NCBI GenBank assembly: GCA_964516745.1
Contig: CAZEYD010000001.1
Location: forward strand, 303,309 to 367,308
Direction: 5' to 3'
Length of the DNA: 64,000 bases
Source of the DNA: Candidatus Woesearchaeota archaeon
GTDB lineage: Archaea; Nanobdellota; Nanobdellia; Pacearchaeales; GW2011-AR1
Position numbers and translations under genes: made by a program. Below the pieces are notes generated by a model that worked only from the letters and a program-made list of their open reading frames with translations, searched no databases and had not been told where the DNA came from. Of this stretch, positions 7,822-38,521 are shown in pieces; the stretch's first letter is position 1; each line of letters opens with the position of its first letter.

Positions 7822-10800
7822 TTACTTATCTCTCGCCTTTTCTATCTCATTTACAAACAAACTATTGCCTCTCTCCTTACTCTCATTATACCTACCGCTA
7901 ACAATAACACCATCACCATCATTTAATTCCAAAAACACTTTAAAGTCTTCAAATACTTTAGGAAAAACAACACAATCGCAATAACTACTTCTATTTCCAA
8001 TCGTCATAAATGCCATATCTTCTCCCTTTTTCGTTCTAATTTTTCTAAAGCTCTTAATGATTCCAAACAAACTAATTTCCTCACCACCTTTTAAATCACT
8101 ATAAGAATTTAAGATATCAGATTTGGATTCAACATACAAATCAACAGGGTGACATGAAATACAAACTCCCATTAGCTCTTTTTCAAGTTCAATTTTATTC
8201 CTCAAACTCAACTCAGATTCAACAACCAATTCACCAGCGGAAGTACCACCAAACAAGGTTGTCTGCTTCCCAACGCTCGATCCATTTTTTTTCACCTTAT
8301 CATAGGTTGCAAGTAGTTCGCCACGCCCGATACCAAAATTGTCAAAGCACCCAACGCCTATTAAATTTTTCATTACTCTCTTATTAACCTTAGATAAATC
8401 AACACTATTAACAAAATTCTGAAACGAATCATATGGCCTTTTTCCTATAATAGAATCTGTAGCACCATGTCCAACATTTTTGATACCAGATAAACCAAAT
8501 CTAATAAATTTCCTACCAGCGATACTTTCTACGTTAAAATCCTCCAAAGAAGAATTTATCTCGGGACCTAATATGTTAATTTTCATTTTTCTTGCCTCCT
8601 CCAAATAGAAACTCATCTTCTCAGGATCATTAGTATTAGAGGAAATGGTAGCCGTCATAAATTCAACAGGATAATATCTTTTTAGATAAGCAGTTCTATA
8701 GGCGATCAAAGCATAAGCAGCAGCATGACTCTTATTAAAAGAATATGATGCAAATTTCACAATGTCGTCCCACAAATTATCAATATCTTTTTGTTCCATT
8801 TTTGCAACATTTAAACATCCGTCCTTAAACTTCTTTTCTAGACTATTCATTAAATCTAAAATCTTTTTACCTATTGCTTTACGCAAAGTATCGGCTTCAG
8901 ACATCGTAAAGCCAGCTAACTTTTGAGCCAATTGCATAACTTGTTCCTGATAAACCATAATACCATAAGTGGGATCTAAGATTTCCTTCGCCCAAATATG
9001 AGGATAACTTACTTTCTCACGACCATGTTTCCTATCACCATAAACTTGTAAATATTGCATTGGACCCGGGCGATATAAAGCAACAATCGCAATAATATCA
9101 TTAAAATTTGTCGGAACAACAGACTTCAATGTCTTCTGCATACCACTACTTTCTAACTGAAAAACACCAACGCTATCACCATCACCCAACATTTCATACA
9201 CGGCTTTATCATCTAAAGGGATTTCCTCTAACCATTTAGTATCCTTACCAATAAAATCCAAAATCTTCTTCGTAATATTTAAGGTCTCTAATCCTAAAAA
9301 ATCAAACTTAACCAGTCCCCTGTCCTCGATTTCATGACCATCTGTTTGAGTAACGATAAAACCATCTTTCTCACTAACAGGAACGTACTCAGTTATAGCC
9401 TCCTTTCCCCATACAACACCACAGGCATGGATTCCTTTATGACGAACTCCTCCCTCTAGCCTTAAAGCAATATCAAATATTTCAAAATATTCTTCTCTAA
9501 ATTTAATTAATTTATCATTAATTAATTTCCCAGATTCATTTTTTAATTCTAAACTCTTCTGGATTGTTTTTTCGGTAACATAATTAGTTACCTCGTTCGC
9601 AATATTAAATGGAATCTTAAACACTCTCATAACATCTTTCAAAACTGATTTTGCACTCATCGTTCCATAAGTTCCAATCAAAGCAATCTTATCATGCCCA
9701 TATTTCTCTTTCACATAATTTACAACAACGTCTTTATCACCAAAATCTATATCAAAATCAGGCAAACTAATTCTATCAGGATTTAAAAACCGTTCAAACA
9801 AAAGACCAAGATGCAAGGGTTCTAACTGGGTAATTCCTAATAAATATGCAACAATGCTACCAGCTCCACTACCACGACCAGGTCCAACTTGACATTGAGT
9901 CTTAGCATAAGCAACAAAATCTTGAACAATTAAAAAATAAGTAGAAAAATTCATTTTCTCTATAACAGACAACTCATATTTTAGTCTTGATTTCGCTTCA
10001 TCATACAAAACATTTCCACCATAAACCTCTTCCAATTTTTTGGAACACAATTTGTTTAAATATTCATCATGATCCATATTGCCTGGGGCATCATATTTTG
10101 GCCAAATTGTCTCACCAAATTTCCAATCAACATTACATTTCTCTGCAATCTCAACACTATTAGAAACAGCATCTAACCTTTCACTAAAGCGTTCCTTCAT
10201 TTCTTCTTCGCTCATTATATAATACCCATCACCAGGAAATTGAAAATGTTTAGGGTCTTCCAAAGAACCATTTGTCTGAATACATAGCATAGTTTCGTGA
10301 GCCTTCTTATCTTCCTTTAATAAATAATGTGCATCACAAGCCGCAACTAATTTTAGCCCCATTTCATCAGCCCACCTATAATAAACATCTCTTACCTTTT
10401 TTTCCTCAGGAATATTATGATTATGAACTTCTAAATAAAAATCTTCTTTCCCAAAAATATCCAAATACTCTTTTAATTTTTCTTTGGCCAAATCCATATT
10501 GTCCCAAACAATAGCGGTAGCAATATCATTAGCAAGGCAGGCAGACATACAAATTAACCCTTCAGAATATTCCTTCAATATCTTTTTATCTATTCTTGGT
10601 CTATAATAAAATCCATTACAGGAAGCAATAGAATTCAGTTTTATTAAATTTTTCAATCCAATTTCATTTTTAGCAAGCAAAATAAGATGCGCTCGCTTTT
10701 CATCTTTATCTCTAACATTTAAATCCTTGACAATATAAGGCTCAACACCAAATATCAATTTAACGCCAGCTTTTTTTGCTACCTTATACTTATTTATAAT

Positions 10801-10935
10801 AGATTCCATATTCCCATGCTCGGTAATTGCGACAGAATTCATACCTAATTCTTTAACTCTCTCAAACAAATCAGAAACTTTTATTGCACCATCCAGAAAA
10901 CTATACTCAGTATGTAGATGTAAATGAACAAATCC
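7822..10935 (-). other. DnaE (C-family polymerase) module of the fusion ORF
   Basis: It begins GFVHLHLHTEYS (I checked the nucleotides at 10921-10935). The order is PHP, palm, thumb/fingers, an internal QTTLF motif, then an OB fold. No tau-binding tail is evident. Confidence 0.8.
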
Positions 10936-13900
10936 GTCATTGAGTTTTTTTTTATCTATCGATTTTGGTATTATATTTTTATTAACAATAACATTTTCTT
11001 CTTTTTGTTTCTCTTCTACAATTATAGGTTTCTCAATAACCAAAATTTCATCTCTTTTAACGTCTTCTTTAATCAATATATTTCCAGAATCTCTGCTCTC
11101 ATGATTAACAGATTCGTTCTTTTCAAATAAAGATAACTGTTTTTCTACCCCAAATATTTCTTCTATATAATCTTTCATTAAATATAAACAATCTTTTGTA
11201 TATTCTGAAATTTCATATTTATCCGCAAGTTCTAATGCAGAACCTAAATATTTTTTTATTGAACCATAAGAAACTGTTAAAAGAAGTTTGCTACCACACT
11301 TTCTACAAATTCCTGCTAATGGGGGTCTTCTATATTTTTGATTACAAGAAGAACATCTAAATTGCTGACGAAAAAACTTCTTTAAATTTCCTCCAATATC
11401 TTTCAAAAAGTGTTTTTCAATAATCATTTCTGCAACATTATCGCTATCAACAGCCCTAATTTTTTCCACTAATTGCATTTGCTTCTCTACCTTTTCCTTC
11501 ATTGTAGGCAAAGATTTGTAGGAACCATTAGTCACACCAATGTTAAAATCAAAGGTATTATGAGTAAATCCTAAACCACTAAATGTAGTAATTCCCTCTC
11601 TTAATCGTTTTTTAACATTATCACTATCAACTTTACTAGAATGCATTCTTTCCTCTGCTAACTCATATAATTCTAATGGATAGTTCCACGCAACATCATA
11701 CTCTAATATTTGATCGTCAACACCCCCTGCTTGAATTCTTCCATTAATAACTAAGGGTGCATCTTGGCTAGCCCCCCTGTGATTAGAAAGATAACTTTTA
11801 CTAAAATTTAAAAGAACATCCATTAACATCATAACAGCCATTTCATCTCCATCACAATCACGACGAATAGCAGCATGCATATATGGACTAGCCATAATTC
11901 CTTGAATATTACTAAAACCTATTATTCTACCAACAACTCCAGCACAATTATGAGGAGCCATACAAACAACCAATTGTCCAACTAAGTCCTCTTTTGTCTT
12001 TAAATTATATAGTTTCTCTTTATTGTAAATCTTCTCTAACTCTTCATCAATAAAATTGGCAATATTAAAAAAAACGTCATCGCCTTTTTCATCATGACTA
12101 TCAGAACATGCCGATAAAACAATATCGTGAGGTCTCAAATCTAAAATTTGATTTGCATCCTTTAGCTCTTTTCCATAAATGTCTTTATCATATCCTAACT
12201 CTATTAACTTTTCAACACTAACATTAATTTCATTTGGTTTAAAATGACTCAACGGAATTTCTATTCCATCATATCTAATTGTTCCATCTTTATTAACTAA
12301 TAGATTATACTTGGATCTCAATATTCCTTTTCCTATATACTCTACCTCACCATTTCCAGAACTAACATTATTAACTCCTTTGACTATTGAAGGGAAATTG
12401 TCTATATCATATCCTAATTTATCCATTGTTGTAAGAATATGTTCTTTAAGTTTTATTTCTCTAAACTGGCAACCATTTCCCCTATGCTCTAAACATTTTT
12501 CTTTATACGTTTTATTACATATCTCACAAAAAAAATTCCTTTCTATTTTTTTCCCACATTTATCACAAACAGAGTATATTGTAGAATTTCCACATTTACA
12601 TTCGTATAAAGGAAACATTCCTTTAAACATAGATTTACTTGCCTCAAATACATTTCTTTGTCTTCCCCCTTTATCATAAACAGGAAATAGCCCATTTGGA
12701 CTTCCTTCCTGTTTTCGTAATTTTGCTTTTTCAGGACGTCCCATTCTAGAACCAATAAAGTCACCCGCCTTATCTTTAATTGTAAATTCAGATAATTCAT
12801 TAATTAATTTTAAAACATCGTCACCATTACTAATTTTAGATTTTAATAAGCCTACTCTTTCCTTAACTAACCCATCCTCACTTATATCCCCTATTCCTAT
12901 ATTATAAAACAATGCTCTTGCCTTTTCCTTTTCTAAAACAACATTATCTAAAACAACATCATGATCAATACCAACTAACTCTAATGCCCTTTTTGCAACA
13001 GAAAATGTATTCTTAATCTCTTTTCCCCATGGCAACACAAACTTTTTATCGCTATCACCTCGCCACATTCCCTCTTCTAACCAGGAAAACAAGGCTAAAA
13101 GATTTTCTCTATTTATCTCTGTCCAATAAAAAATATATTTTGGATATAATGGAACAGAATATTTTATACTTATATTAACGGCCAAATCTATGTCAATTTT
13201 CCATTTATCATATTCAAGTATATCACCTGTCACCTCTAATTTTTTTTTGAGTTCTAAGTCCCACCATTCTTCTACATAACCTGATTTAACCAAATCAGAA
13301 TTTCTATCTCTAACATCACCTAATGAACATAACATATCGCCAAGATAAATTATTTCATAAACATCTTTACTTAACTCCATAGCTTTCTCATATTCGTGAA
13401 TTTGTTTTACACTACCATCTTTTAACTTAACGATTGGTCCTTCTAATACATCACAAGAGGTAATTATTGTTCCCTTAATCGGTTTTTCCAATTTTAATTG
13501 TGTACCTTGAGATAAAAATCCATCACTAATTCCCATCGTTGCGGGACTTATACTAACCGCACTAAACCCATTTGTTCTACTTTTTCCATAACGAAATCTA
13601 AAACCTCCGCTTCTAGATGGATGTCCATAAACTGGTCTTCCTGCAACTAAATCTTTTATATATGTTGCACCAACATCTCCTAAACCACTCTCTCTCTTGG
13701 AATGAATAACCAAATATTCTACAAGAAAATCCCAACCAGTACTCTTTATACCGTTCTTTTTAACATCATTTAATCGATGTAATCCCTTTGCTGCTTTCTG
13801 AGCAAGACCTTCAGCCAAAACCAAACAAACACCACCTCTAATTCTAGGAGTATGAACTCTCTCTATATCCTTAAAATTACTAACCTCCTGTAACTCTGTT

Positions 13901-14604
13901 GGATCTCCATCTATCTGAATTGGTAAATTTTTCGATAAAAAAATCAGTTCCTCTTCTGTCGGCATATATTGTAAATTAGATACTTTATCATTATAATCAA
14001 CACATTCAATATAATATCTCTTAATTTCATCTTCTGTTGCAATATATTTAGCATAACCAAAATATTCTCGTAAATAGTCAACCAACATCAAAAAAACACA
14101 AGTAGCAGTTGTTCCAGCACTCCTAATCGGACCAGAAAATTTAACTCTAAAGTATTCAGATTTATCCCTGTTTTTATCTAAACTGATACCAGTATAACCT
14201 TCTAGTGGACTAGCAACAACTCCTAAAGTTAAATACGAAAAACCAACTCGCAAACCAGCATCAATTCCAATCATTTTATCTTCAAAACTACAAAATTTAT
14301 TCTTCGCTATTTCTCTAGCAATAATAAAACTAACAGTTGTATTTAATTGACCATATTTCTTTTCTAATTCTAATATTCTTTTAGATATCTCAGCAACTGG
14401 TAGTTGAGGATATACTATTGCAATTAAATTAACACATTTTTCAGCCATAGACATAGCTAAAGGTGTTTCAACTTGTTGCATAAAATCAAACCCATTTTTC
14501 TTAGCAGAATTTGCTATATCATAAATTTCTCTTATATTTTTGTTCATCAAATTAAAATATTCAGATTCATCCCAATATCCCATTTTGTTTATTTTTTCTT
14601 CCAT
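7822..14604 (-). CDS. Fusion protein: archaeal DNA polymerase D large subunit (DP2, aa 1 to ~1160), a K/E-rich linker, then a bacterial-type DNA polymerase III alpha subunit (DnaE, aa ~1222-2260)
   Basis: One uninterrupted 2260-codon frame. The DP2 part has GPIRSAGTTA, RSGGFRFRYGKSRT, Cys clusters CKCG..CDKCG and CSSCN..CRKCG, and the catalytic AIRRDCDGDEMAVMML. The DnaE part has PHP HLHLHTEYSFLDG, AITEHGN, GVEPY, AHLILLAKN, MSAC and CDAHY. It also has GPGRGSGAGS, the palm PDFDIDF and KFDFLGLETL, then GVFQLES, ALYRPGP, YQEQVMQ, FNKSHAAAYA and a C-terminal OB-fold-like segment. Confidence 0.85.
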   Translation of the reverse strand: MEEKINKMGYWDESEYFNLMNKNIREIYDIANSAKKNGFDFMQQVETPLAMSMAEKCVNLIAIVYPQLPVAEISKRILELEKKYGQLNTTVSFIIAREIAKNKFCSFEDKMIGIDAGLRVGFSYLTLGVVASPLEGYTGISLDKNRDKSEYFRVKFSGPIRSAGTTATCVFLMLVDYLREYFGYAKYIATEDEIKRYYIECVDYNDKVSNLQYMPTEEELIFLSKNLPIQIDGDPTELQEVSNFKDIERVHTPRIRGGVCLVLAEGLAQKAAKGLHRLNDVKKNGIKSTGWDFLVEYLVIHSKRESGLGDVGATYIKDLVAGRPVYGHPSRSGGFRFRYGKSRTNGFSAVSISPATMGISDGFLSQGTQLKLEKPIKGTIITSCDVLEGPIVKLKDGSVKQIHEYEKAMELSKDVYEIIYLGDMLCSLGDVRDRNSDLVKSGYVEEWWDLELKKKLEVTGDILEYDKWKIDIDLAVNISIKYSVPLYPKYIFYWTEINRENLLALFSWLEEGMWRGDSDKKFVLPWGKEIKNTFSVAKRALELVGIDHDVVLDNVVLEKEKARALFYNIGIGDISEDGLVKERVGLLKSKISNGDDVLKLINELSEFTIKDKAGDFIGSRMGRPEKAKLRKQEGSPNGLFPVYDKGGRQRNVFEASKSMFKGMFPLYECKCGNSTIYSVCDKCGKKIERNFFCEICNKTYKEKCLEHRGNGCQFREIKLKEHILTTMDKLGYDIDNFPSIVKGVNNVSSGNGEVEYIGKGILRSKYNLLVNKDGTIRYDGIEIPLSHFKPNEINVSVEKLIELGYDKDIYGKELKDANQILDLRPHDIVLSACSDSHDEKGDDVFFNIANFIDEELEKIYNKEKLYNLKTKEDLVGQLVVCMAPHNCAGVVGRIIGFSNIQGIMASPYMHAAIRRDCDGDEMAVMMLMDVLLNFSKSYLSNHRGASQDAPLVINGRIQAGGVDDQILEYDVAWNYPLELYELAEERMHSSKVDSDNVKKRLREGITTFSGLGFTHNTFDFNIGVTNGSYKSLPTMKEKVEKQMQLVEKIRAVDSDNVAEMIIEKHFLKDIGGNLKKFFRQQFRCSSCNQKYRRPPLAGICRKCGSKLLLTVSYGSIKKYLGSALELADKYEISEYTKDCLYLMKDYIEEIFGVEKQLSLFEKNESVNHESRDSGNILIKEDVKRDEILVIEKPIIVEEKQKEENVIVNKNIIPKSIDKKKLNDGFVHLHLHTEYSFLDGAIKVSDLFERVKELGMNSVAITEHGNMESIINKYKVAKKAGVKLIFGVEPYIVKDLNVRDKDEKRAHLILLAKNEIGLKNLIKLNSIASCNGFYYRPRIDKKILKEYSEGLICMSACLANDIATAIVWDNMDLAKEKLKEYLDIFGKEDFYLEVHNHNIPEEKKVRDVYYRWADEMGLKLVAACDAHYLLKEDKKAHETMLCIQTNGSLEDPKHFQFPGDGYYIMSEEEMKERFSERLDAVSNSVEIAEKCNVDWKFGETIWPKYDAPGNMDHDEYLNKLCSKKLEEVYGGNVLYDEAKSRLKYELSVIEKMNFSTYFLIVQDFVAYAKTQCQVGPGRGSGAGSIVAYLLGITQLEPLHLGLLFERFLNPDRISLPDFDIDFGDKDVVVNYVKEKYGHDKIALIGTYGTMSAKSVLKDVMRVFKIPFNIANEVTNYVTEKTIQKSLELKNESGKLINDKLIKFREEYFEIFDIALRLEGGVRHKGIHACGVVWGKEAITEYVPVSEKDGFIVTQTDGHEIEDRGLVKFDFLGLETLNITKKILDFIGKDTKWLEEIPLDDKAVYEMLGDGDSVGVFQLESSGMQKTLKSVVPTNFNDIIAIVALYRPGPMQYLQVYGDRKHGREKVSYPHIWAKEILDPTYGIMVYQEQVMQLAQKLAGFTMSEADTLRKAIGKKILDLMNSLEKKFKDGCLNVAKMEQKDIDNLWDDIVKFASYSFNKSHAAAYALIAYRTAYLKRYYPVEFMTATISSNTNDPEKMSFYLEEARKMKINILGPEINSSLEDFNVESIAGRKFIRFGLSGIKNVGHGATDSIIGKRPYDSFQNFVNSVDLSKVNKRVMKNLIGVGCFDNFGIGRGELLATYDKVKKNGSSVGKQTTLFGGTSAGELVVESELSLRNKIELEKELMGVCISCHPVDLYVESKSDILNSYSDLKGGEEISLFGIIKSFRKIRTKKGEDMAFMTIGNRSSYCDCVVFPKVFEDFKVFLELNDGDGVIVSGRYNESKERGNSLFVNEIEKARDK
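10936..11121 (-). other. Low-complexity K/E/I/V-rich linker between the DP2 and DnaE modules
   Basis: KNESVNHESRDSGNILIKEDVKRDEILVIEKPIIVEEKQKEENVIVNKNIIPKSIDKKKLND. It contains no stop codon and no Met. Confidence 0.7.
11122..14604 (-). other. DP2 (PolD large subunit) module of the fusion ORF
   Basis: Covers aa 1 to ~1161. It ends with ...DYIEEIFGVEKQLSLFE, where QLSLF lies at nt 11125-11139. Confidence 0.8.
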
Positions 14605-14713: not shown

Positions 14714-16285
14714 TTAATCATTCATTTTACAACAAATATTATCATCCTTTATCCATTTCACTTGCTTACTATCATCACTAAAATCTAAAACTTTTATCTC
14801 TCTTGTTCTTAAATTTAACAATGGTACTTTACACGGATCCGAAAGAATCCCTTTCTTATCTAAATAATTTGTATTATTCATCCAACAAGAACCATTGATT
14901 AACAAGATATTTTCTTTCATTTCTATTTCACATCTATGTAAATTTCCAGTAAATATAATATCAGGTATCGGTTCTATTATTGATAAATCTTTTTCCTCTG
15001 GTATAATATCTACACTACCATACATTGGAGATAATTGTTTTATTCTTAGCAACTCTTTAATTATATTGTTCGGAGAGGAAAATCCAGATTTATTTCGAAT
15101 ATTTGGCATTTCATTCGTTAAATTATAAATATTTGTACCATGATATAATAATATATTAATTTTATTTTCTATTTTAACCCAAGATGGATTTTCTAAAAAC
15201 GTTATATTATTTCTAGCATCTAATTCCTTAAACCATTTATTTTCTATTCTACTCTGTGGTTCACCTCTCCATACTGCATCTCTATCTCCAGATGTAACCA
15301 GTATATTAAGATCTTTTCTAAACAATTTAAATAGTTCTTGAACTTTTTCATATTGTTTGGTTATGTTTTTTATTTTAAGATCTTTTTCTTGATTTACATA
15401 ATGTCCAATCCCATCAACTAAATTTCCTCCAATAAATAAATATTTTATGTTTTTAGAAATTTCTGAATAAATATTTTTCTCTTTTCCATTTATCCATTTT
15501 ATAAATTTGAGGAAGTTTTTCTCCATAAAATTAACAGAACCACAATGTAAATCACTAATAAATGCAACCCAGCAATCATTCTCTGTTTTTACTATTCTAT
15601 TATTTTTTACTTCAGGAAAAATTATATCATTACAAAAAAACATTTCGCTAGAACAACTTCCTCTAAAAACTAAAACACTATCCATCAAAATTTGACTAGC
15701 TTGTTCATATAATTTATTTTTGTTCTTATTTATTAGCAAATTTATACTACCTGTCATATCTTCTACCTCTAAAATTATATTTTTGTTTTTTGTTATCCTT
15801 TTACTAAATACAGAACCTATTATTGTAAAACTACTATTTTTACTTATTTTTCTTATACTTGTTATATCACTATACTCTTTTTCTAACAAAAAATCTTTTA
15901 TTATATTATATTTTCTTCTAAAACTATTAATAAAATCGTTAACTGTAAATATTTTAGGTTTATGTTCTTTCTCCTTTATTACTTGAATTGTGTTAAATTC
16001 TTCTTTTTTATTAATATTTTCTGTCTTTTTCTTTTCATTTAGTTCTAAAAAAAATGCATCAACACTATCATTAAGACCTCCATTCATAATTTTTTTGATA
16101 TTTTTGATGTTATCAGAAAATATTTTTCTAGTAATTACCCGTTCTTTTAACTTTAAATTACCAATAATGTCTATTATTTCATTTATCTTATCTGATTCAA
16201 TCTTATTAAAAATATCTAACATTTCTTTGTCTAATAAAAACCCTTTCTTCATACACTCTTTTAATACTAAATTTACCATATTCAA
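14714..16285 (-). CDS. DNA polymerase D small subunit (DP1), with atypical phosphoesterase motifs
   Basis: OB region plus calcineurin-like phosphoesterase region: AFISDLHCGS, LFIGGNLVDGIG, VTSGDRDAVWRGEPQ, LLYHGTN and IFTGNLH. It lies directly upstream of DP2, as in other archaea. Confidence 0.85.
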   Translation of the reverse strand: MNMVNLVLKECMKKGFLLDKEMLDIFNKIESDKINEIIDIIGNLKLKERVITRKIFSDNIKNIKKIMNGGLNDSVDAFFLELNEKKKTENINKKEEFNTIQVIKEKEHKPKIFTVNDFINSFRRKYNIIKDFLLEKEYSDITSIRKISKNSSFTIIGSVFSKRITKNKNIILEVEDMTGSINLLINKNKNKLYEQASQILMDSVLVFRGSCSSEMFFCNDIIFPEVKNNRIVKTENDCWVAFISDLHCGSVNFMEKNFLKFIKWINGKEKNIYSEISKNIKYLFIGGNLVDGIGHYVNQEKDLKIKNITKQYEKVQELFKLFRKDLNILVTSGDRDAVWRGEPQSRIENKWFKELDARNNITFLENPSWVKIENKINILLYHGTNIYNLTNEMPNIRNKSGFSSPNNIIKELLRIKQLSPMYGSVDIIPEEKDLSIIEPIPDIIFTGNLHRCEIEMKENILLINGSCWMNNTNYLDKKGILSDPCKVPLLNLRTREIKVLDFSDDSKQVKWIKDDNICCKMND

Positions 16286-16334: not shown

Positions 16335-17549
16335 CTAAATACCCAACATTTCAATCAAACTAATCTCTATTTTTTTAAATATATTATTAGGAACACTTAA
16401 TTTAATATCCCTAGTTCTCCCATGCCTTCCTTTACTTATAACCTTAGCATTAATAATTCCCATCATATCTAAATCTGCTAATATATCACTAATTCTTCTT
16501 TGTGTTAGGCCATCTGTTTTTGTCTGTAAGCATAAATCCTGATATACATTATAAACATCACCTGTAAAAAACTTATCAATATTCTTCTCTTTTTGTTGTT
16601 TTGTTAATTGAACTATTGAATATAATACCAATTTATGTTGTTTTGGATATGTTTCAACTATATCTAATATTTTATCCTTTTCTATTTTTTGATTTGCAAA
16701 GTCAATATATTCTTCTTCTACTACAACCTTTGAATCTCTTTCTGATAATTCTCCCGCTATTCTTAATAAATCTAATGCTCTTCTTGCATCTCCATGCTCC
16801 CTAGCAGCATAGGCGGCACATTTTGCAATAACTCCATCACTAATAACATTTTTTTTGAATGCTAATTCGCACCTCTCATTTAATATGTCTCTCAATTGTA
16901 TTGCATTATATGGAGAAAATATAAATTCTTCTTCACCCAAACTACTTCTTACTCTTGGATCTATATTTTCTAAAAAAGTAACATCATTACTAATTCCTAT
17001 CAAGGATATTTGTGCATTAACTAACTCTTGATTAATCCTAGTCATAGTATATAAAAAATTATCACTCATTTTTTTAACAGCTTGATCTATCTCATCAAAA
17101 ATAAAAACTATTAATTGTTTCTTTTTATCGATAATTTCAAGAAACTTTGCCCAAACTTTATCTGTTGGTAATCCTGTTGCTGAAATTTCTCCACCCATTT
17201 TCTTTATCAGTGCTGCTAATATTCTATATTCTGTATCCGCAACCTTTCTTAATTTACAATTAAGATATTCAAATCTTACATCAACTCCTATTTCTTTTGA
17301 TTTTTCTGTTAATTGATTACAAACATATTCAACTGATAATGTTTTACCTGTTCCTGTTTTTCCATAAACAAACAAATTGCTCGGTGTTTCCCCTCTTAAT
17401 ATAGATGCCAATATTCCTGCTATGGATTTTATTTGTTTATCTCTGTGTGGAATATTATCAGGAGTATATCTAACTTGAAGTACTCCTTTGTTCTTAAATA
17501 AACTATTATTTACAGCACTTTCAAATATATCATTTAATTCAACTCCCAT
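16335..17549 (-). CDS. cdc6: Orc1/Cdc6 replication initiator
   Basis: Walker A GKTGTGKT, Walker B IFDEIDQ, sensor region and a C-terminal winged helix (GRHGRTRDIKL). It is adjacent to an AT-rich intergenic region. Confidence 0.9.
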   Translation of the reverse strand: MGVELNDIFESAVNNSLFKNKGVLQVRYTPDNIPHRDKQIKSIAGILASILRGETPSNLFVYGKTGTGKTLSVEYVCNQLTEKSKEIGVDVRFEYLNCKLRKVADTEYRILAALIKKMGGEISATGLPTDKVWAKFLEIIDKKKQLIVFIFDEIDQAVKKMSDNFLYTMTRINQELVNAQISLIGISNDVTFLENIDPRVRSSLGEEEFIFSPYNAIQLRDILNERCELAFKKNVISDGVIAKCAAYAAREHGDARRALDLLRIAGELSERDSKVVVEEEYIDFANQKIEKDKILDIVETYPKQHKLVLYSIVQLTKQQKEKNIDKFFTGDVYNVYQDLCLQTKTDGLTQRRISDILADLDMMGIINAKVISKGRHGRTRDIKLSVPNNIFKKIEISLIEMLGI

Positions 17550-17608
17550 CTTCTATTTTAAAACATATTAAAGTATTTAAATATGATATATCGGAAATTA
17601 TTATTATT

Positions 17609-17895
17609 ACCCCCTATTTCAAATGGAACTTATTTTATAGACTCTTTTTACTTAAAATATTTTAAAGACGAAGATTACTCTAAATTTTTATATCCCTCAC
17701 CCCATCATTTCCTTTCCAAAAGAAACTATCAACAATAATAATAATGGTAAATAATTATTCTAAAATATATATTCATTAATAACTATTACATTATACTATA
17801 TTATATTATATAAATACTTTTAAATAAAATTAATAAAATTAATAAATTAAATGTTTAAATATTTTATAATAAATCTCCAACAGAAATAGTAGGGT
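17609..17895. promoter_or_regulatory. Candidate replication origin (oriC): inverted ORB-like elements flanking an extremely AT-rich unwinding region
   Basis: The reverse complement of 17609-17629 reads GTTCCATTTGAAATAGGGGGT. The forward strand at 17874-17895 reads TCTCCAACAGAAATAGTAGGGT. The shared core is TCCAnnnGAAATAG..GGGT, in inverted orientation. A third mini-ORB-like TTCCAAAAGAAAC lies at 17714-17726. Positions ~17735-17872 are almost pure A/T. Confidence 0.55.
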
Positions 17896-18013
17896 CACAC
17901 CCATAACAAATAAAAATTATTTATTTGAATAAAATAATCAAATTAAAGTATACATACTAGAATATATTATTAAATACACAAACATTTATAAAATATTTTA
18001 ATTTATATCAAAT

Positions 18014-18268
18014 ATGGAAAAAAGATCATTCAAATCATTTTTAGGAAAACAGGTAGTAACTAAAGAAGGAAAAAAATTAGGATTAGTAAAAGATATTACA
18101 TTTGAATCAAGAACGGGTGAATTAATTCATTTAGTAATAAAAGATTTAACAACATATACAGCAAATCTTTCATTAGAAAAAACAAAAGAAAAAGAAGCCT
18201 TAGTTCCATATAATTCTGTAATTGCAGTAGGCGATTTTATTGTAGTTTCTGAAGAAGACTTAATGTAA
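18014..18268 (+). CDS. PRC-barrel domain protein
   Basis: FLGKQVVTKEGKKLGLVKDITFESRTGELIHLVI...VPYNSVIAVGDFIVV is the typical PRC-barrel pattern. Confidence 0.6.
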   Translation: MEKRSFKSFLGKQVVTKEGKKLGLVKDITFESRTGELIHLVIKDLTTYTANLSLEKTKEKEALVPYNSVIAVGDFIVVSEEDLM

Positions 18269-18720: not shown

Positions 18721-18759
18721 ATTCTAAAAATTTATAAAAGATATTAAATATAATAAATT

Positions 18760-19029
18760 ATGCCAAAAATATCAATCAAAAAAAAAGAAAAGATTTCAGA
18801 ACAAATTTTATTTTATTTATATTCTCAGTTTCCCAAACAATTATTTACAGCTGAAATAGCTAATGAATTAGCAAGAGATGAAGAATTTATAAAAGAAATG
18901 TTGATAGGAATGGAGAAGAAAGGTCTTATATTAAAAATAACAAAAAATCCAAATGGAATAAGTTATATAAGAAGATTAAGATGGAGAATTTCTAATAAAG
19001 CTTACAATATCTATAAACAAATGCAGTAA
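18760..19029 (+). CDS. Small winged-helix DNA-binding protein
   Basis: 89 aa. ILFYLYSQFPKQLFTAEIANELARDEEFIKEMLIGMEKKGLI resembles a wHTH. Confidence 0.55.
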   Translation: MPKISIKKKEKISEQILFYLYSQFPKQLFTAEIANELARDEEFIKEMLIGMEKKGLILKITKNPNGISYIRRLRWRISNKAYNIYKQMQ

Positions 19030-20197: not shown

Positions 20198-20800
20198 TTA
20201 GTGCTTTTTAGCTCTTTTTATCTTAATTTTTATACTTTTTGTTATATAATCTTTCATTTTATCAGGAATAAAGACTCTTTTTTTACCAGAAGGCTCCATA
20301 AGTTCACCAATAATTCCTGGGATCTTTTGTTTTATAGTGTTTATTTGCCCTCTCACAGTGCTTTTGTTCTTACCAAACATGCTTGATAAGTCCTCATAAC
20401 TCAGTTTTAATTCACTATTTAACAAAGCAAAAACAATTGCCCTTTCCATCACAGTTAATCTATATAATCCATCTGTTTGAACACCTGTTTGGACATCTGT
20501 TTGAACAGAGTTAAACGTTGTATCTGTTTGAACGGAATTAGACACCTGTTTGGACACACCCTGTCCAAAGAATGCAGAATTAGCTCTAATTGTTTCAATG
20601 TCCTTTTTTAGGTTAGCTAATTCATTATCAAGAGAACTATTTTTTTTATCATTTTTATCAGACTTATCGTCGAGAACCGTTATCCATTCACCCACTTTAG
20701 CAAAGTCTTTTTTTACGTTATCAAAAGACTCAACAATTTCCTTTCTTAATTCATTGATTTTCCTTTTTTGACCAAACATCTTATGGTTAAGAATAAACAC
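20198..20800 (-). CDS. Coiled-coil protein with VQT[DG] repeats and C-terminal HTH domain (paralog-like to 19090-19899)
   Basis: NSVQTDTTFNSVQTDVQTGVQTDG repeats, followed by LTVMERAIVFALL...LSSMFGKNKSTVRGQINTIKQK. Confidence 0.55.
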   Translation of the reverse strand: MFILNHKMFGQKRKINELRKEIVESFDNVKKDFAKVGEWITVLDDKSDKNDKKNSSLDNELANLKKDIETIRANSAFFGQGVSKQVSNSVQTDTTFNSVQTDVQTGVQTDGLYRLTVMERAIVFALLNSELKLSYEDLSSMFGKNKSTVRGQINTIKQKIPGIIGELMEPSGKKRVFIPDKMKDYITKSIKIKIKRAKKH

Positions 20801-21091
20801 CTGTTTATAAAACTTCCCACCTGTTCAAACAGCAAACAGCCTTTAGACACCAATTAGTAATAATATGTTAATAAATAAACAAGTAAATATTTATATTTTT
20901 CATTCTTCTATAATTATAACGTCGACAAATAAAAAATCTAAAAAAAAAGACAATTTCATTTATAACTTACATAAACACCTGTTTGCACATTGTTTGAACG
21001 GTATCATGTTTAATACACCTGTCCAAACACAACTAAAACAACTACAAACATTAAAGTAAAAATTTAAATAGATAAACAAATATTATACAAT

Positions 21092-21394
21092 ATGCAAATA
21101 AAAAAAAGATTATCATATTCATTTATGATAGCAGCAAGCACGTTAATATTATCTTTTATTTTTCCAATTATCCCATGTAGAAAAGCACCAAATATTCCTA
21201 ACCCAATATATAAATGGTCTATGTGTACGTTGAATTCAGGATCAATATTACAAACAAACTCAACAATCGAATATTTTGGATATACAACAAATCTTAGTAG
21301 TGCAGTATTCACTTTAGTGATATTAATATCCATTATAACATACCTAACCTTAGTTCTAATTGCAAGAAGCAATAAAAAAAAAAGAAATAAGTAG
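21092..21394 (+). CDS. Small two-helix membrane protein, hypothetical
   Basis: Two hydrophobic segments and a basic tail KKKRNK. It is preferred over the overlapping antisense ORF at 21064-21372. Confidence 0.35.
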   Translation: MQIKKRLSYSFMIAASTLILSFIFPIIPCRKAPNIPNPIYKWSMCTLNSGSILQTNSTIEYFGYTTNLSSAVFTLVILISIITYLTLVLIARSNKKKRNK

Positions 21395-22903: not shown

Positions 22904-22931
22904 GGTTCGTACAATCTAAGAGGTGTGTAAT
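22904..22931 (+). promoter_or_regulatory. dif-like 11-6-11 site 3, overlapping the xer start codon
   Basis: GGTTCGTACAA-TCTAAG-AGGTGTGTAAT. The xer ATG lies at 22930-22932, and a TATA-like tataaatatata lies ~35 nt upstream. Confidence 0.4.
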
Positions 22932-23757
22932 GAATAAAAAAGAGTTTTTAAAAAAGGTAGAAATAGAGTTAAAGATATCAAAGAATTCGGAGTACACAGT
23001 TAGAAATTACATTAGAGCTAATGAAGAATTAATAAATTTTGTAGATAAATTTCCAAAAGAGATAAATCCAGATGATATAAAATTATATCTAGCAGAAAAT
23101 TGTTCAGATAGGGCTACAAGTTCGGTTATATTGTTTTTATCAGCGATAAGATATGCTCATCTTGCAGTTTTTCAGAAAGATCCAACACAGATTATAAAGC
23201 GTCCAAAAAAAGAAAAAAGAATCCCAACCGTATTAACAAAAGAAGAGGTAAAACAATTAATAAATATAATAACAAACCAAAAGTCTAAGCTAATTATTTC
23301 TCTTATTTATGCCTGTGGATTAAGAGTCTCAGAAATAGTTACATTAAAAATAAATGACTTAGATTTCATAGAAAATGTTGGACACATAAGGCAGGCAAAG
23401 GGAAAAAAAGATAGAATGGTAAATATCCCCAAATTTCTAACAGATGATTTAAAATATCAAGTAAAAAAACAAAAAGATCAGAAACAAGAATACTTATTTA
23501 CCGGACCAAAAGGAAAAATGACAACAAGGAACATACAAAAAATAGTACAAAAAGCATCAGATAAATTAGATATAAATAAAAGTATTCATTGTCATACTCT
23601 AAGACACTCATTCGCTACACATTTATTAGAAAATAATGTAGATATAAGAAAAATTCAAGAGTTATTAGGACACGCAGATTTATCTACAACACAGATATAC
23701 ACACACATCTCAAGACAAGAGCTAAAAAAAATCCAATCACCACTAGATACATTATAA
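22930..23757 (+). CDS. xerA: Tyrosine recombinase, XerA/XerCD-like
   Basis: The catalytic pattern is present: GLRVSE (R), GKKDR (K), HTLRHSFAT (HxxR), LGHADL (H) and QIYTH (Y). Confidence 0.85.
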   Translation: MNKKEFLKKVEIELKISKNSEYTVRNYIRANEELINFVDKFPKEINPDDIKLYLAENCSDRATSSVILFLSAIRYAHLAVFQKDPTQIIKRPKKEKRIPTVLTKEEVKQLINIITNQKSKLIISLIYACGLRVSEIVTLKINDLDFIENVGHIRQAKGKKDRMVNIPKFLTDDLKYQVKKQKDQKQEYLFTGPKGKMTTRNIQKIVQKASDKLDINKSIHCHTLRHSFATHLLENNVDIRKIQELLGHADLSTTQIYTHISRQELKKIQSPLDTL

Positions 23758-32145: not shown

Positions 32146-32919
32146 ATGAGAAAGGGGCTTCATAACAAGAAGGGACAACTAACCTTATTTATAATTCTAG
32201 GAATAATAATCTTTGCCGGAATCTTCGTCTTTATCTTTTGGGTACAACCAACGTTTATCTCTCAAAACTCAGCAAGATTGAGCTTTGAAGGATGTATCGA
32301 AAAAGTAGTAGATGACTCAATAACAGAATTAGCATTAACAGGTGGATACAAGAACCCAAGCTTCTCCTATATATATAAGGGACAAGAAATCCCATATTTT
32401 ATTTATACCAGCGAATATTATAAACCAGGTGTAACTCAGAATCCATTCCCAATAAAAGCATTTAGAGAAGAACTTATATCGTATACAACTCCAGGAATAG
32501 AAGCATGTTATTCAAATTCTATATCAAAATTACAGAAACTAGGATATGAGGTTGTAAAGGGAACACCAAAGGTATCGATACTAGTTTTCCCAGAGTTTGT
32601 TCGTGTAACATTAGATGCACCAACAACAATAGGCACAGAACAATATCAAGAATTCATAATAGATATCCCATCTGAAATTTTCGGAATATTGGAAAAAGTA
32701 AGTACCATACTATATAGAGAATCATTATATGGAACAACAGATATTCTTGAATTAATGAGAACAACATCTAATCATATAATCCAAGTGTTTAAGCAGGGTG
32801 ATGGAACAAAGGTATATGTGATTGAAGATAGAGAATCTGGAACTAAATATCAATTTGCTAGCAGATCTTATGTCAAACCAGTAGGTATCGACATAGAGGC
32901 AATATCGGGATTATTATGA
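32146..32919 (+). CDS. Pilin-like protein, first gene of the second pilus-like operon
   Basis: MRKGLHNKKGQLTLFIILGIIIFAGIFVFIFW shows KG then Q followed by a hydrophobic helix. Confidence 0.55.
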   Translation: MRKGLHNKKGQLTLFIILGIIIFAGIFVFIFWVQPTFISQNSARLSFEGCIEKVVDDSITELALTGGYKNPSFSYIYKGQEIPYFIYTSEYYKPGVTQNPFPIKAFREELISYTTPGIEACYSNSISKLQKLGYEVVKGTPKVSILVFPEFVRVTLDAPTTIGTEQYQEFIIDIPSEIFGILEKVSTILYRESLYGTTDILELMRTTSNHIIQVFKQGDGTKVYVIEDRESGTKYQFASRSYVKPVGIDIEAISGLL

Positions 32920-34724
32920 AAATGGAACACAACACAACACAAATATTTGTACTCCTATTAATATTAGCTACATTTTTACCATTAGTATTAGCAGAACCAA
33001 GCACATCAACATATTGTTGTGAGAAAACAATAACAGATGGAAGCTGTGTTAATACAATAAGAGCGGAATGTAATGATTCTATGCAAAAAAGCCAAGCATC
33101 TTGTGGTAGCACAACATATTGTCAATTAGGAACATGCTACGATACTGACAACGGAGAATGTTCAGGTAACATCGCAAAAGCACGTTGTTTAGAAAAAGGA
33201 GGAGAGTTTATCCCAGGAGATATTCGTGAGGTAGGACAATGTAAATTAGGTTGCTGTATATTAGGAGATAACGCCCAATTGTCAACACATACTAGATGTA
33301 TAGCAACAGGAACTATGTTAGGAATTAATTCAGATTTTAATGCAGGAATAACAATAGAATCAGAATGTATATCATCAGTTCAAACACAGGACAGAGGAGC
33401 ATGTGTGACACCAACAGACATAGGAAGACAATGTATCGTTACAACAAGAGAAGACTGTGGGGGAAGCGAAGGAACAATAACCAGTGGAACATACCAATCC
33501 GAATCAGCAAAAACATTTTATAGCGGATATTTATGTTCATCAGGTGCCCTATTGACCAACTGTGGAAAACAAGCAGAAACACGATGTGATGATGACGATA
33601 TTTATTGGTATGATACTTGTGGAAATAGAGAAAACGTGTATTCTGGAGTTTTTACAAACAAGACAGATATCATAAGTTATAATAATGGAAAATTAGCAAC
33701 ACCAAAAGAAATAAGTCCAACTAGATCTCTAGATGGAGATTGTGATTATTTCTTTGAAAGTATTTGTGCCGATTGGAGTAAAAACACAATCGGTGCACCA
33801 GAATCAGTTCCAGAAAGGGTAGCTAGTTATTGTAAGTCAACAACATGTATAGACAAAGACAAAAATCCAAGAAAAAATCTGGAAGCTTGGTGTGTTACAG
33901 ATGATACAAATTCTAACAAGATATTAAAATTTAACGACAAAAATATATTACAACAACAGGGTGAAGGATTAGATTTAGTAGGTTCAGAATATTTCGTAAA
34001 GTATTGTAATAATGGTATAATCTATAATGAAAGCTGCCAATCTAACAGAAGAGAGATTTGTATTGAAGGATACAAAAATGTAGGTTCAGATACGGAAACA
34101 TCTCTTACAAAACAAGCAACTGCAAGATGTGTAAACAATAGAAATGAAGAATGTATAATAATAGATCAAAAAACAGATTGCGAGAATTCAGACAAAAGAG
34201 ATTGTATATGGTTAGGTGATTCAGAAATAAGCACATTGATATCAACTAATTCAACTCTATTATCAACAGAGGATGGAATTAAAATAAGAGGGAATAGAAG
34301 AAGTAATAAAAAAGAAAACGGTGTTTGTGTTTCGAGGTATTCACAAGGACTAATCACAAATTCATCAGCAGGTGATACAACCTGTAACCTAGCATCTGTT
34401 AGTTGTGAAGTTACATATGAAAGAGATCTAATGGAAAAAGTTTTTTCATCTGTCGAACTATTTTTTGGAGGCAAAGTAGGCGGAAAAAATCCAAGATTAA
34501 GAGATTATAAGTTTGAGATATTAGAAAATAATAAGTGTTTAGGAAAAGATTGGGTTAATGAAGCAAATAAAATATGTGTTAGGCAAGGAGATTGTGGAGC
34601 ATATAAGAATTATGAAAACTATAAAGACTTTGCATATGAATACACTGGTAGTATTGAAGGTGATTTAAATGGGAGTTCTATTCAGGGCGAATTAAATAAA
34701 TGGATAGATGGGAGTATAATATGA
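32916..34724 (+). CDS. Large Cys-rich secreted protein
   Basis: 602 aa with a signal-like N-terminus (FVLLLILATFLPLVLA). Cys residues are very numerous throughout. ATGA overlap with the upstream gene. Confidence 0.6.
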   Translation: MKMEHNTTQIFVLLLILATFLPLVLAEPSTSTYCCEKTITDGSCVNTIRAECNDSMQKSQASCGSTTYCQLGTCYDTDNGECSGNIAKARCLEKGGEFIPGDIREVGQCKLGCCILGDNAQLSTHTRCIATGTMLGINSDFNAGITIESECISSVQTQDRGACVTPTDIGRQCIVTTREDCGGSEGTITSGTYQSESAKTFYSGYLCSSGALLTNCGKQAETRCDDDDIYWYDTCGNRENVYSGVFTNKTDIISYNNGKLATPKEISPTRSLDGDCDYFFESICADWSKNTIGAPESVPERVASYCKSTTCIDKDKNPRKNLEAWCVTDDTNSNKILKFNDKNILQQQGEGLDLVGSEYFVKYCNNGIIYNESCQSNRREICIEGYKNVGSDTETSLTKQATARCVNNRNEECIIIDQKTDCENSDKRDCIWLGDSEISTLISTNSTLLSTEDGIKIRGNRRSNKKENGVCVSRYSQGLITNSSAGDTTCNLASVSCEVTYERDLMEKVFSSVELFFGGKVGGKNPRLRDYKFEILENNKCLGKDWVNEANKICVRQGDCGAYKNYENYKDFAYEYTGSIEGDLNGSSIQGELNKWIDGSII

Positions 34725-36526: not shown

Positions 36527-36532
36527 TTAATA

Positions 36533-37021
36533 ATGATACCAAAAAAGGCTCAGCAATCAGTAGGAATGTCGTTTGGTATGATATTTTCTATAATATTAAT
36601 TGTTATTTTTGTTGCATTTGCATTCATGGCAATAAAGTTTTTTCTAAATTTCGGTTCATCATCTCAAGTGGTTCAGTTCTATGAAAGTTTTCAAGGTGAG
36701 ATAGATAATGCATGGAGTTCAGCATCAGTAGAAAAACCGTATGAGATAAATTTGCCAAAAAAGATCACACATATTTGTTTTGCGAATTTTTCAGCACCAC
36801 TCACAGCAGACCAAGAACTAAGCTCTCAAATAAAGAGTTACGACTATGAATCTAACTTATTCTTGATTCCACAAAAAGCTGCTTTTGGCTTCAAATCCAA
36901 AACAATAGAGCATCTCGAGATATCAAAAATTACCAGGAATCAAAATCCATACTGTATCCCAAACCCAGGAGTAATCATAATCAAAAAAGAATTGGGTTCA
37001 AAAAAAGTAATTGTTGAATAA
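36533..37021 (+). CDS. Pilin-like protein
   Basis: MIPKKAQQSVGMSFGMIFSIILIVIFVAFAF shows a KAQ motif followed by a hydrophobic helix. Confidence 0.55.
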   Translation: MIPKKAQQSVGMSFGMIFSIILIVIFVAFAFMAIKFFLNFGSSSQVVQFYESFQGEIDNAWSSASVEKPYEINLPKKITHICFANFSAPLTADQELSSQIKSYDYESNLFLIPQKAAFGFKSKTIEHLEISKITRNQNPYCIPNPGVIIIKKELGSKKVIVE

Positions 37022-37076
37022 TTTTATTATCGTATCTTCCCCATAAATTTATAATATTTCTTATCATAAAAATAAA

Positions 37077-38036: not shown

Positions 38037-38521
38037 AAGCACAATATAAGATAATGCAGATGGTTGTTATGGTTTTGGCCATATTCTTATTTTTTATATT
38101 AGTAGGTATATTTTTAATAAATTCCCAATCTCAAGGGCTAAAAGAATCATCAGATAATTTAAAGAGAGCACAAACAATTTCATCCATAGAATCTTTAGCA
38201 AATTCACCAGAATTCTCTTGCGGTAGTACAGAATCGTGGTGTGTAGATAGTGATAAGCTTCATATAATGTCAGGTGAATTAGGAAAAGAATATTCCGACT
38301 TCTGGCAAATATCCTCTATTGAAGTATTATCCATTTATCCAAATAATCAAACAGATGTTATAGAATGTCCAGGAGAAGGATGCAATTATTATAAAATATA
38401 TGATAATAACCAACCAAATAAAGAAACGTATTCTGCATATATCAGTTTATGCGAAAGAAAAAGTAGGCTAATTGTTGAGTGTCAACTAGCAAAACTTATT
38501 GTAGGAGTAAAAAATGTATAA
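38033..38521 (+). CDS. Pilin-like protein
   Basis: MKAQYKIMQMVVMVLAIFLFFILVGIF. ATGA overlap with the upstream stop. The ORF track starts at 38027. Confidence 0.5.
   Translation: MKAQYKIMQMVVMVLAIFLFFILVGIFLINSQSQGLKESSDNLKRAQTISSIESLANSPEFSCGSTESWCVDSDKLHIMSGELGKEYSDFWQISSIEVLSIYPNNQTDVIECPGEGCNYYKIYDNNQPNKETYSAYISLCERKSRLIVECQLAKLIVGVKNV

Follow-up and report, generated by a model that had tools for sequence, protein, structure and literature searches.

Cellular replicases belong to families B, C and D, which are unrelated to one another, and how one of them comes to replace another is a long-standing question. The locus described here raises this question in a single gene. It lies in a 64,000-nucleotide stretch of contig CAZEYD010000001.1 (positions 303,309 to 367,308, hereafter the window) from a Candidatus Woesearchaeota archaeon, where an earlier note described one open reading frame (ORF) as encoding both DP2, the large subunit of the archaeal D-family polymerase PolD, and DnaE, the bacterial C-family polymerase that forms the alpha subunit of DNA polymerase III (Pol III). 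Is such a join real, how did it arise, and what kind of replicase would it make? The analysis showed that it is a genuine gene fusion. The reading that we favour, with moderate confidence, is that the fusion of neighbouring genes may have created a tethered two-polymerase replicase in which proofreading is probably shifting to DnaE.

The DP2::DnaE fusion gene (7822–14604, minus strand, to which all positions within it refer) is a single ORF of 2260 codons with an ATG start and zero internal stops. The open frame had been described correctly, and its orientation was corrected, the coding strand being the minus strand. Pfam located PolC_DP2_N (residues 15–297), PolC_DP2_central (314–699) and PolC_DP2_cat (740–1038) on the DP2 side, and PHP (1227–1396), DNA_pol3_alpha (1514–1771), DNA_pol3_finger (1775–1931), HHH_6 (2008–2096) and OB (2178–2256) on the DnaE side. 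All scores were well over the gathering cut-offs, with 251, 325 and 328 bits for the DP2 families PF03833, PF24844 and PF24846 (cut-off 24.3 each) and 30–272 bits for the DnaE families. With NCBIfam, the DP2 equivalog TIGR00354 reached 1030 bits over residues 15–1156 (cut-off 702) and the DnaE equivalog PRK05673 reached 1120 bits over residues 1223–2257 (cut-off 1002), while TIGR00594 scored 1075 bits against a cut-off of 434 and PRK04023, at 1192 bits, was slightly below its cut-off of 1269. Neither the model of the error-prone DnaE2, PRK05672 (551 bits, cut-off 939), nor the PolC model PRK00448 (202 bits, cut-off 873) was reached. The profile hidden Markov models that had been proposed as a check support each half, and by sequence the two belong unambiguously to known families, namely DP2 and a DnaE1-type alpha subunit with an active-type PHP domain. 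An intein was considered as the cause of the ORF length and rejected, as the fusion ORF has no match to PF14890 or PF14528 and most unfused relatives carry them; a protease or mobile element was likewise rejected, no such domain being found in the ORF by Pfam.

The reality of the join was judged from its relatives. The whole-ORF protein search covered 5.8 billion proteins. The identical protein, P0001, is present on a 371-kb contig in NCBI, JGI and ENA, and seven further clusters of full architecture (2153–2367 aa, 62–78% identity) come from JGI, ENA, NCBI and Logan assemblies, so that the fusion proteins total 8 clusters at 90% identity with 17 member sequences. A ninth lineage, L017, ends at a contig edge just past ...DFVHLHLHTEY, and a GTDB species representative, 'Candidatus Woesearchaeota archaeon' CAZFHC010000005.1, has a 2233-codon open frame over both halves. 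The search for co-linear homologues in other archaea, suggested at the outset, was therefore productive. The fusion is restricted to one small clade within the Pacearchaeota/Woesearchaeota group of tiny, uncultivated DPANN archaea: HMMER over 1.84 billion representatives at 50% identity returned exactly one representative with both halves, and a metagenome scan of 80 more loci gave no certain new fusion, L021 being a contig-start fragment (81% identical) with the DnaE part alone. Pairwise identities among the fusions are 54–89% for the DP2 halves over their full length and 64–90% for the DnaE halves, in congruent patterns. Both halves and both polymerase centres are thus shown to be under purifying selection. 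The order cdc6-DP1-fusion recurs in five other fusion contigs. The otherwise tight DP1-DP2 pair is broken up in the P0007 lineage (L017, L018, L020), where insertion of a gene for a GT2 glycosyltransferase and an ORF of 216 aa has separated DP1 from the fusion gene.

A possible artefact was weighed: a chimeric assembly, a frameshift or stop that had been missed, or a bacterial contaminant joined to an archaeal contig. In its favour, the sequence is metagenome-derived, an A9 homopolymer lies near the junction and NCBI files one of the related fusions under Patescibacteria. Against this, the frame is open across variable linkers in all nine independent lineages, which differ in sample and assembler, the two halves co-diverge, the fusion gene has archaeal neighbours (DP1 and Cdc6/Orc1 upstream, aEF-1beta downstream), and the DnaE proteins closest to it come from archaea and are encoded in linkage with DP2. 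The chance of an artefact is accordingly negligible; chimera, missed stop and contamination are effectively excluded. The argument of the earlier note against a trivial contaminant is upheld, and a chimeric join is contradicted by the recurrence of the same architecture in nine lineages with different linker lengths. Its appeal to uniform composition across the junction held in part: the two sides are similar (codon-count correlation r = 0.935), and not identical (GC 0.310 vs 0.333; GC at third codon positions 0.181 vs 0.257).

As to the database records, the fusion protein P0396 (MGK0208831.1) and the DP1 P0402 share a 74.6-kb contig that carries the NCBI label 'Patescibacteria group bacterium', probably through mis-binning. 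Named fusion proteins are annotated just as 'DNA polymerase III subunit alpha', an annotation that hides the architecture.

The two halves are joined by a linker of 72 aa (residues 1153–1224; 10933–11148) rich in Lys (17%), Glu (15%) and Ile (14%), with a GC content of 0.255, in which Pfam detected no domain and no intein. Linkers of the fusions range from 41 to 165 aa, are acidic or lysine-rich and only 15–50% identical, and are in frame in every case; their length and variability make disorder of the linker evident at the level of sequence. Such a long, exposed and unconserved linker might be thought to yield two separate proteins from the fused gene, by linker proteolysis, by internal initiation at one of its in-frame TTG codons, or by a -1 slip on the A9 run, behind which the -1 frame reads ACT CAA TGA. 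We consider this very improbable. None of the fusions has kept the initiator Met of DnaE, where Asp, Ser, Ala, Gly, Asn or Glu now stands, and from the end of DP2 to the HxH motif of PHP there is no in-frame ATG. The KKK/A9 element is absent from that place in other fusions, no intein or protease domain is present, and the retention of the fusion over lineages that are 54–65% identical would lack a reason.

The A9 run itself (10945–10953, coding Lys-Lys-Lys on the minus strand) stands three codons ahead of the first DnaE residue. A -1 slip on it would reach a stop two codons on and give a DP2-plus-linker product, reminiscent of dnaX tau/gamma. A dnaX-like frameshift was rejected, as KKK/A9 does not occur at that place in the other fusions, and the run is for the same reason probably a chance feature.

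What, then, has been kept in each half? The DP2 part (residues 1–1152; 11149–14604), whose structured portion ends at EEIFG, comprises the N-terminal, central and catalytic domains and a C-terminal helical bundle with Zn-III. Its alignment to Pyrococcus abyssi DP2 scores 750 bits and reaches chain residue 1191 of 1270; together with the DP2 models this bears out the claim that residues 1 to ~1160 are a full-length PolD large subunit. The catalytic motif RRDCDGDE (residues 914–921, Asp 916/918/920; 11842–11865) aligns to RRNCDGDE of P. abyssi. Zn-III (Cys 1084/1087/1100/1103 with KYRRPP; 11296–11355) was aligned to the DP2 of P. abyssi and Thermococcus kodakarensis; Zn-III with KxRRxP is the element that docks DP1 (PMC6355029). 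In 8/8 fusions no change occurs in RRDCDGDE, RMGRPEK or the Zn-III cysteines, and the same elements are invariant in 113 unfused DP2, bar Cys917 in one sequence. The DP2 polymerase centre thus looks functional, and activity can be inferred.

Other elements of DP2 have been less stable. The cysteine cluster of Zn-I and Zn-II (residues 669–707; 12484–12600) is retained in the window protein, and the first four of its cysteines are invariant in 113/113 unfused DP2. The module is deleted in at least two fusion relatives, P0002 and P0007, of which P0002 is the closest relative of the window protein. Zn-I is known to stabilise clamp-2 and Zn-II lines the template entry (PMC6355029). The C-terminal tail has changed in all fusions. 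Among unfused DP2 tails, 80 of 96 end in a canonical PCNA-interacting protein (PIP) box, KQxxLxxWF, about 13 residues past the last DP2 helix. The aromatic pair (WF) is gone in every fusion, and Q-L-x-[L/F] alone is kept, now in an internal position. In the window protein this remnant is QLSLF (residues 1156–1160; 11125–11139), similar to Q1198-L-x-L-I, the PIP that lies internally in the DP2 of P. abyssi.

The DnaE1-type part (residues 1225–2260 and the stop codon; 7822–10932) aligns with the alpha subunit of Thermus aquaticus (738 bits), DnaE1 of Mycobacterium tuberculosis (635) and the alpha subunit of Escherichia coli (608). It ends at position 1062 of 1146 in PRK05673 and at residue 1055 of 1160 in E. 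coli alpha, and the protein terminus lies 4 residues beyond the OB match. Since the part stops just after the OB fold, the tau-binding C-terminal domain is absent, and the description of residues ~1222–2260 as a full-length alpha subunit stood for PHP through OB and failed for this last domain. The nine PHP ligands H1229, H1231, D1238, H1263, E1288, H1306, C1356, D1424 and H1426 (10327–10920), which begin in the HLHLH of residues 1227–1231, are invariant in 8 fusions and, alignment gaps aside, in 117 stand-alone archaeal DnaE. They make up the full signature HHDHEH[C/H]DH that a 2026 survey of bacterial polymerases assigned to active PHP exonucleases (PMC12926913). The palm motifs PDFDIDF (residues 1615–1621; 9742–9762) and KFDFLGL (residues 1766–1772; 9289–9309) align to PDIDTDF and KMDFLGL of T. 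aquaticus, and their aspartates D1616, D1618 and D1768 are invariant in the 125 archaeal sequences (8 fusions and 117 stand-alone, with few gaps). Between HhH and OB lies the clamp-binding-type motif QTTLF (residues 2114–2118; 8251–8265). Q and L of QxTLF are invariant in the 125 archaeal DnaE and F is kept in 123/125, the other two having Phe-to-Leu changes; all three are kept in the fusions. A sliding-clamp gene, PCNA or DnaN, was not found among the 60 window ORFs or in the gene tables of the fetched loci. The DnaE polymerase centre and PHP nuclease look functional, with activity as their likely consequence. The motifs listed in the earlier note, including GVFQLES, ALYRPGP, FNKSHAAAYA, QTTLF and both Zn clusters, were all present, the loss of catalytic Asp in DnaE that it had named as grounds for doubt did not occur, and its statement that both polymerase active sites are intact agrees with the retention of the catalytic residues across relatives.

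The origin of the fusion can be read from its unfused relatives. The DnaE half matches hundreds of stand-alone proteins of ~1040 aa with 55–66% identity, whose carriers, where named, are Pacearchaeota, Nanoarchaeota or 'archaeon' metagenome-assembled genomes (MAGs). DnaE had been called atypical for archaea; it is not peculiar to the source genome, stand-alone DnaE being widespread in MAGs of Pacearchaeota and Woesearchaeota. Unfused clusters often read cdc6-DP1-DP2-dnaE with dnaE directly downstream of DP2. A Pol III gene beside the PolD subunit genes was reported in two Pacearchaeota by Castelle et al. (2021, Front Microbiol, PMC8204110), with no fusion mentioned, and the supplementary tables of that paper hold no searchable Pol III, PCNA or DnaN entries. 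The literature searched gave no paper on a DP2-DnaE fusion, only this adjacency report, in line with the impression that the fusion was previously undescribed.

The spacing between DP2 and dnaE varies widely. In L002 the two are separated by an opposite-strand ORF of 268 aa and in L004 by an ORF of 84 aa; several loci have gaps of 418–564 and ~900–1700 nt; the gaps in L010, L014 and L047 are 14 and 29–36 nt; in L032 the genes abut (~0 nt); and in L006, L007 and L023 the junction is TAA, 1 nt and ATG. The nearest stand-alone DnaE, P0121 (66% identical), starts 1 nt past the DP2 stop codon. Since dnaE lies downstream in 17 unfused loci and is absent over at least 5 kb downstream in 38, the linkage is common and not universal. 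The fusion is shown to have joined, locally, two genes that were already neighbours; it did not arise by DP2 capturing a foreign gene. In neighbour-joining (NJ) analysis the fused DnaE halves form a single clade in 50/50 bootstraps, and one event probably gave rise to all fusions. The simplest history is one fusion of adjacent, probably co-translated genes in a narrow clade.

Several further observations were made on these unfused loci. A downstream dnaE occurs only where motif III of DP1 reads GQHD (14 loci) or GTHD (1), and in none of the 21 loci with a canonical GNHD DP1 and at least 5 kb downstream; the association may be a clade marker only or an earlier step in the change of DP1. In L008 (9001–14988, lineage P0236), dnaE is followed by an 80-aa ORF and then by a 770-aa DP2, and the array adjoins an intein-bearing MCM gene. 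The DP2 of the P0236 lineage has the central and catalytic domains only, without the N-terminal domain, and is possibly a split DP2; DnaE and PolD are thus linked there in another way. The stand-alone DnaE P0170 and P0225 carry an intein (Intein_splicing and LAGLIDADG_3), as do most DP2 of the group; the fusions carry none. Related Pacearchaeota DP2 with an N-terminal 5'-nucleotidase (NT5C) are P0013, P0016, P0019, P0022, P0024, P0031, P0061 and P0087, P0058 is a DP2 with an HD phosphohydrolase domain, and in the DP1 P0424 there are additional Pfam matches to cytidylate-kinase/AAA families. Within this group, PolD seems to act as a hub to which enzymes of nucleotide metabolism become fused.

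The partner of DP2 has changed as well. DP1, the PolD small subunit, is a protein of 523 aa encoded directly ahead in the cluster (14714–16285, minus strand), with Pfam matches to DNA_pol_E_B, OB and Metallophos and an alignment of 205 bits to P. abyssi DP1. Its motif III is SGDRDA (residues 332–337; 15275–15292, minus strand), where GNHD has become GDRD and H451 of P. abyssi is replaced by Arg335. In motif II, GGNLVDG (15410–15430, minus strand), GD has become GN with Asp changed to Asn288, and in motif V GHxH has become GNLH. H451 of P. abyssi DP1 is the proton donor, and the H451A mutant is proofreading-deficient (PMC6355029). Among 121 DP1 sequences (that of the window, that of P. abyssi and 119 homologues), the catalytic His is missing in just five, all from fusion genomes, and the DP1 P0398 and P0404, chosen solely for His->Arg, were each found upstream of a DP2::DnaE gene. 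By locus, the His is lost in 6/7 fusion lineages examined vs 0/81 unfused loci. It is replaced by Arg in the window, L015, L017, the P0007 lineage and a P0008-like genome, whose DP1 is tied to its fusion only by matching record attributes including the MAG label, and by Asn in the P0003 lineage. PolD-specific elements, namely the DP1 His, the PIP aromatic pair and Zn-I/II, are eroding in fused lineages, which is the most informative feature of the system and one that the earlier note had not noticed.

In one subclade, then, the DP2 stop codon, the short spacer and the DnaE start codon were lost, so that DP2 runs through a flexible, fast-evolving linker into DnaE. The following working model accounts for these features. 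The gene would yield one polypeptide of ~260 kDa. Its DP2 module may still dock DP1 via Zn-III, and two different, presumably competent polymerases would be held 1:1 at the fork, where the tether could permit hand-off or a (strand-specific) division of labour. The bacterial coupling device is not available to a DnaE without the tau-binding domain, and the peptide linker may stand in for it. DnaE would supply its own PHP 3'-5' exonuclease, and proofreading, perhaps bulk synthesis and clamp attachment through QxTLF, may move to the DnaE module, with the PolD module keeping its polymerase centre and its connections to the archaeal replisome. A shift of proofreading to DnaE is the likeliest working model since the PHP signature is complete and, like QxTLF, strictly conserved, and since the DP1 His has been lost in most fused lineages, the PIP aromatics in all and Zn-I/II in at least two.

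Several points weigh against this reading. The P0006 lineage (L019) keeps the DP1 His despite its fusion, and the Fisher P of 1e-8 for the association of His loss with fusion ignores phylogeny; as the fusions probably share one origin, few independent changes stand behind the link. The group-B branching of the NJ tree of DP2 halves implies three or more losses of the His, to Arg in group A, to Arg in the P0008 lineage and to Asn in the P0003 lineage; the alternative is a single loss with the His restored in P0006. That tree recovers the monophyly of the fusions in only 2/50 bootstraps and interleaves two fusion groups (P0001/2/7 and P0003-6/8) with unfused DP2; it neither confirms nor refutes a single origin. 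Inactivation of the DP1 nuclease by His->Arg/Asn is only presumed. Divergence relative to DnaE is 1.78 for DP1 and 1.29 for DP2 in fused pairs and 1.51 and 1.16 in unfused pairs, differences that are small and come from pairs that are not independent; they are suggestive of a somewhat faster evolution of DP1 and DP2 in fused lineages. The perfect conservation of the DP2 catalytic centre opposes the idea of PolD as a mere scaffold, and we infer both the single ~260-kDa product and its two active polymerases from sequence.

The direction in which this erosion leads was also considered. The state found here might be midway in a replicase displacement, in which proofreading, attachment to the clamp and perhaps bulk synthesis would be passing to a DnaE that was first recruited beside the PolD operon and then welded to DP2, with DP1 and DP2 on their way to a docking scaffold; this can be entertained tentatively. 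A rival reading is a PolD half that is becoming a non-catalytic adaptor, with DnaE as the replicase and DP2-DP1 as a scaffold into CMG, primase and PCNA, comparable to the eukaryotic PolB replicases, which retained of PolD just the C-terminal domain of DP2 and an inactive B subunit resembling DP1. The loss of the DP1 His in six of seven fusion lineages and of the PIP aromatic pair in all of them, the deletion of Zn-I/II in two fusions, the stronger conservation of the DnaE half beside relatively faster PolD subunits in fused genomes, and the precedent of PolB-DP2CTD fusions (CTD, C-terminal domain) that bind DP1 in Baldrarchaeia and Aenigmatarchaeota lacking DP2 (PMC12680538) would all suit such an adaptor. 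We regard it as unlikely: RRDCDGDE, RMGRPEK and Zn-III are invariant in every fusion, the DP2 halves are still 54–89% identical over their full length, and no fusion with a truncated DP2 core occurs among the 1.84 billion representatives.

The opposite assignment, in which PolD stays the replicase and the tethered DnaE has an accessory role in repair, gap filling or translesion synthesis, or chiefly provides proofreading in cis, is improbable in our view. It draws on the role of PolD as the essential replicase in other archaea, on the full conservation of the DP2 active site and on the 38 unfused relatives without dnaE in at least 5 kb downstream, where DnaE may be dispensable or encoded elsewhere. 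It sits poorly with the class of the enzyme, which passed the replicative model PRK05673 and not the DnaE2 model PRK05672, with the conservation of DnaE, the most conserved of the three proteins DP1, DP2 and DnaE, and with the invariance of its polymerase aspartates, not of the PHP ligands alone. The two-polymerase replicase with proofreading shifting to DnaE is therefore retained as the preferred reading.

Cdc6/Orc1 (16335–17549, minus strand; Pfam Cdc6_C, Cdc6_lid and AAA) is the first gene of the conserved cdc6-DP1-DP2(-dnaE) cluster, and Cdc6 and DP1 precede the fusion gene, as expected from the canonical position that the earlier note had assigned to it. An AT-rich spacer of 460 bp upstream of cdc6 (17550–18013, no strand, GC ~0.25) is a candidate origin, in which no clear origin recognition box (ORB) elements were found, just short AT-rich inverted repeats. 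Farther along the window encodes a thermosome, RadA, RNA polymerase subunits, a tRNA-splicing endonuclease and a topoisomerase.

About 5 kb past cdc6 lies a tyrosine recombinase (Phage_integrase, 275 aa; 22930–23757); as syntenic 275-aa genes occur in the P0005 contig and L018, it is probably a chromosomal Xer-type enzyme and not a prophage marker. At 20470–20990 and 21010–21029, a 14-nt motif, CAYCTGTTTGRACA, occurs in six direct copies, five of them in 90 nt, and in an inverted copy 500 nt off. These repeats lie partly inside a 200-aa ORF (20198–20800, minus strand) ~3 kb from cdc6 and could be protein-binding sites or a coding repeat. A 45-nt AT-rich box, TAAAAATTTATAAAA...ATATG, found at 17979–18023, 18725–18769 and 21057–21101, precedes three small ORFs and is probably a shared archaeal promoter or leader. 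Seven consecutive plus-strand ORFs of 162–608 aa at 32146–39014 have no Pfam match and are followed by an S-layer-like protein (39752–42085) and a MacB-type ABC transporter (42189–45333).

Two replicase families from different domains of life are combined here in one chain with both active sites conserved, and the resident enzyme is losing accessory features in parallel, namely the proofreading His of DP1, the aromatic pair of the PIP box and Zn-I/II. The clade also offers a graded series, from genomes with no dnaE nearby through gaps of a few hundred to ~1,700 nt and abutting genes to fusions with an intact DP1 and finally fusions with an altered DP1. This series makes it testable how a bacterial polymerase plugs into the archaeal PCNA/CMG replisome without tau, whether a PHP exonuclease can substitute for the PolD proofreader, and whether tethering enables hand-off. 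If displacement is true, these archaea would be repeating today and independently, with a C-family enzyme, the path by which eukaryotic Pol alpha, delta and epsilon are proposed to have arisen from a foreign polymerase, the CTD of DP2 and a DP1-like B subunit that was inactivated.

The known systems nearest to the fusion differ from it in instructive ways. Canonical PolD of P. abyssi and T. kodakarensis (PDB 6HMS, 6T8H, 6KNB) shares the DP2 domain set, the DxDxD centre, Zn-I/II/III and the DP1 partner gene; it ends in a long C-terminal tail with a C-terminal PIP (cPIP), whereas the fusion continues into a linker and a second polymerase, and its DP1 is intact, whereas here DP1 is altered in residues of motifs II, III and V, including H451->R. 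T. aquaticus alpha and M. tuberculosis DnaE1 share with the DnaE half the order PHP-palm-thumb-fingers-HhH-OB, the palm Asp, HHDHEHCDH and an internal QxxLF. The DnaE half is ~40–47% identical to non-archaeal representatives and is distinguished by its lack of the tau-binding domain, its archaeal host and its covalent attachment to DP2. The PolB-DP2CTD fusions of Baldrarchaeia and Aenigmatarchaeota and the eukaryotic Pol alpha, delta and epsilon (PMC12680538; PMC7544198), the closest precedent in concept, likewise combine a polymerase of another family with a DP1-docking DP2 element, and their phosphodiesterase (PDE) nuclease in the B subunit or DP1 is decaying or inactive. In those enzymes the DP2 core is replaced and PolB is N-terminal to the CTD, whereas here the DP2 core is complete and conserved and the C-family polymerase is C-terminal to the CTD. 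The fusion joins two unrelated folds, a double-psi beta-barrel and a Pol-beta-like nucleotidyltransferase.

Replisomes with two polymerases held together non-covalently are well known: E. coli Pol III cores are connected via tau, B. subtilis employs PolC and DnaE, and archaea employ PolD and PolB. The fusion resembles them in having two centres that would act at one fork, with hand-off or division of labour presumed, and differs in that coupling would be provided by a peptide linker within one gene. The DnaE found beside PolD in Pacearchaeota (PMC8204110) is alike in gene families, gene order and the origin-proximal cluster; there the genes are separate, DP2 is mostly PIP-ended and the DP1 His is kept, whereas here the genes are joined, the PIP aromatics are gone and the His is replaced. 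The DP2-dnaE gene neighbourhood is thus already published, and what is new is the covalent joining of two unrelated replicative folds, its restriction to a single clade and the correlated changes in DP1 and DP2.

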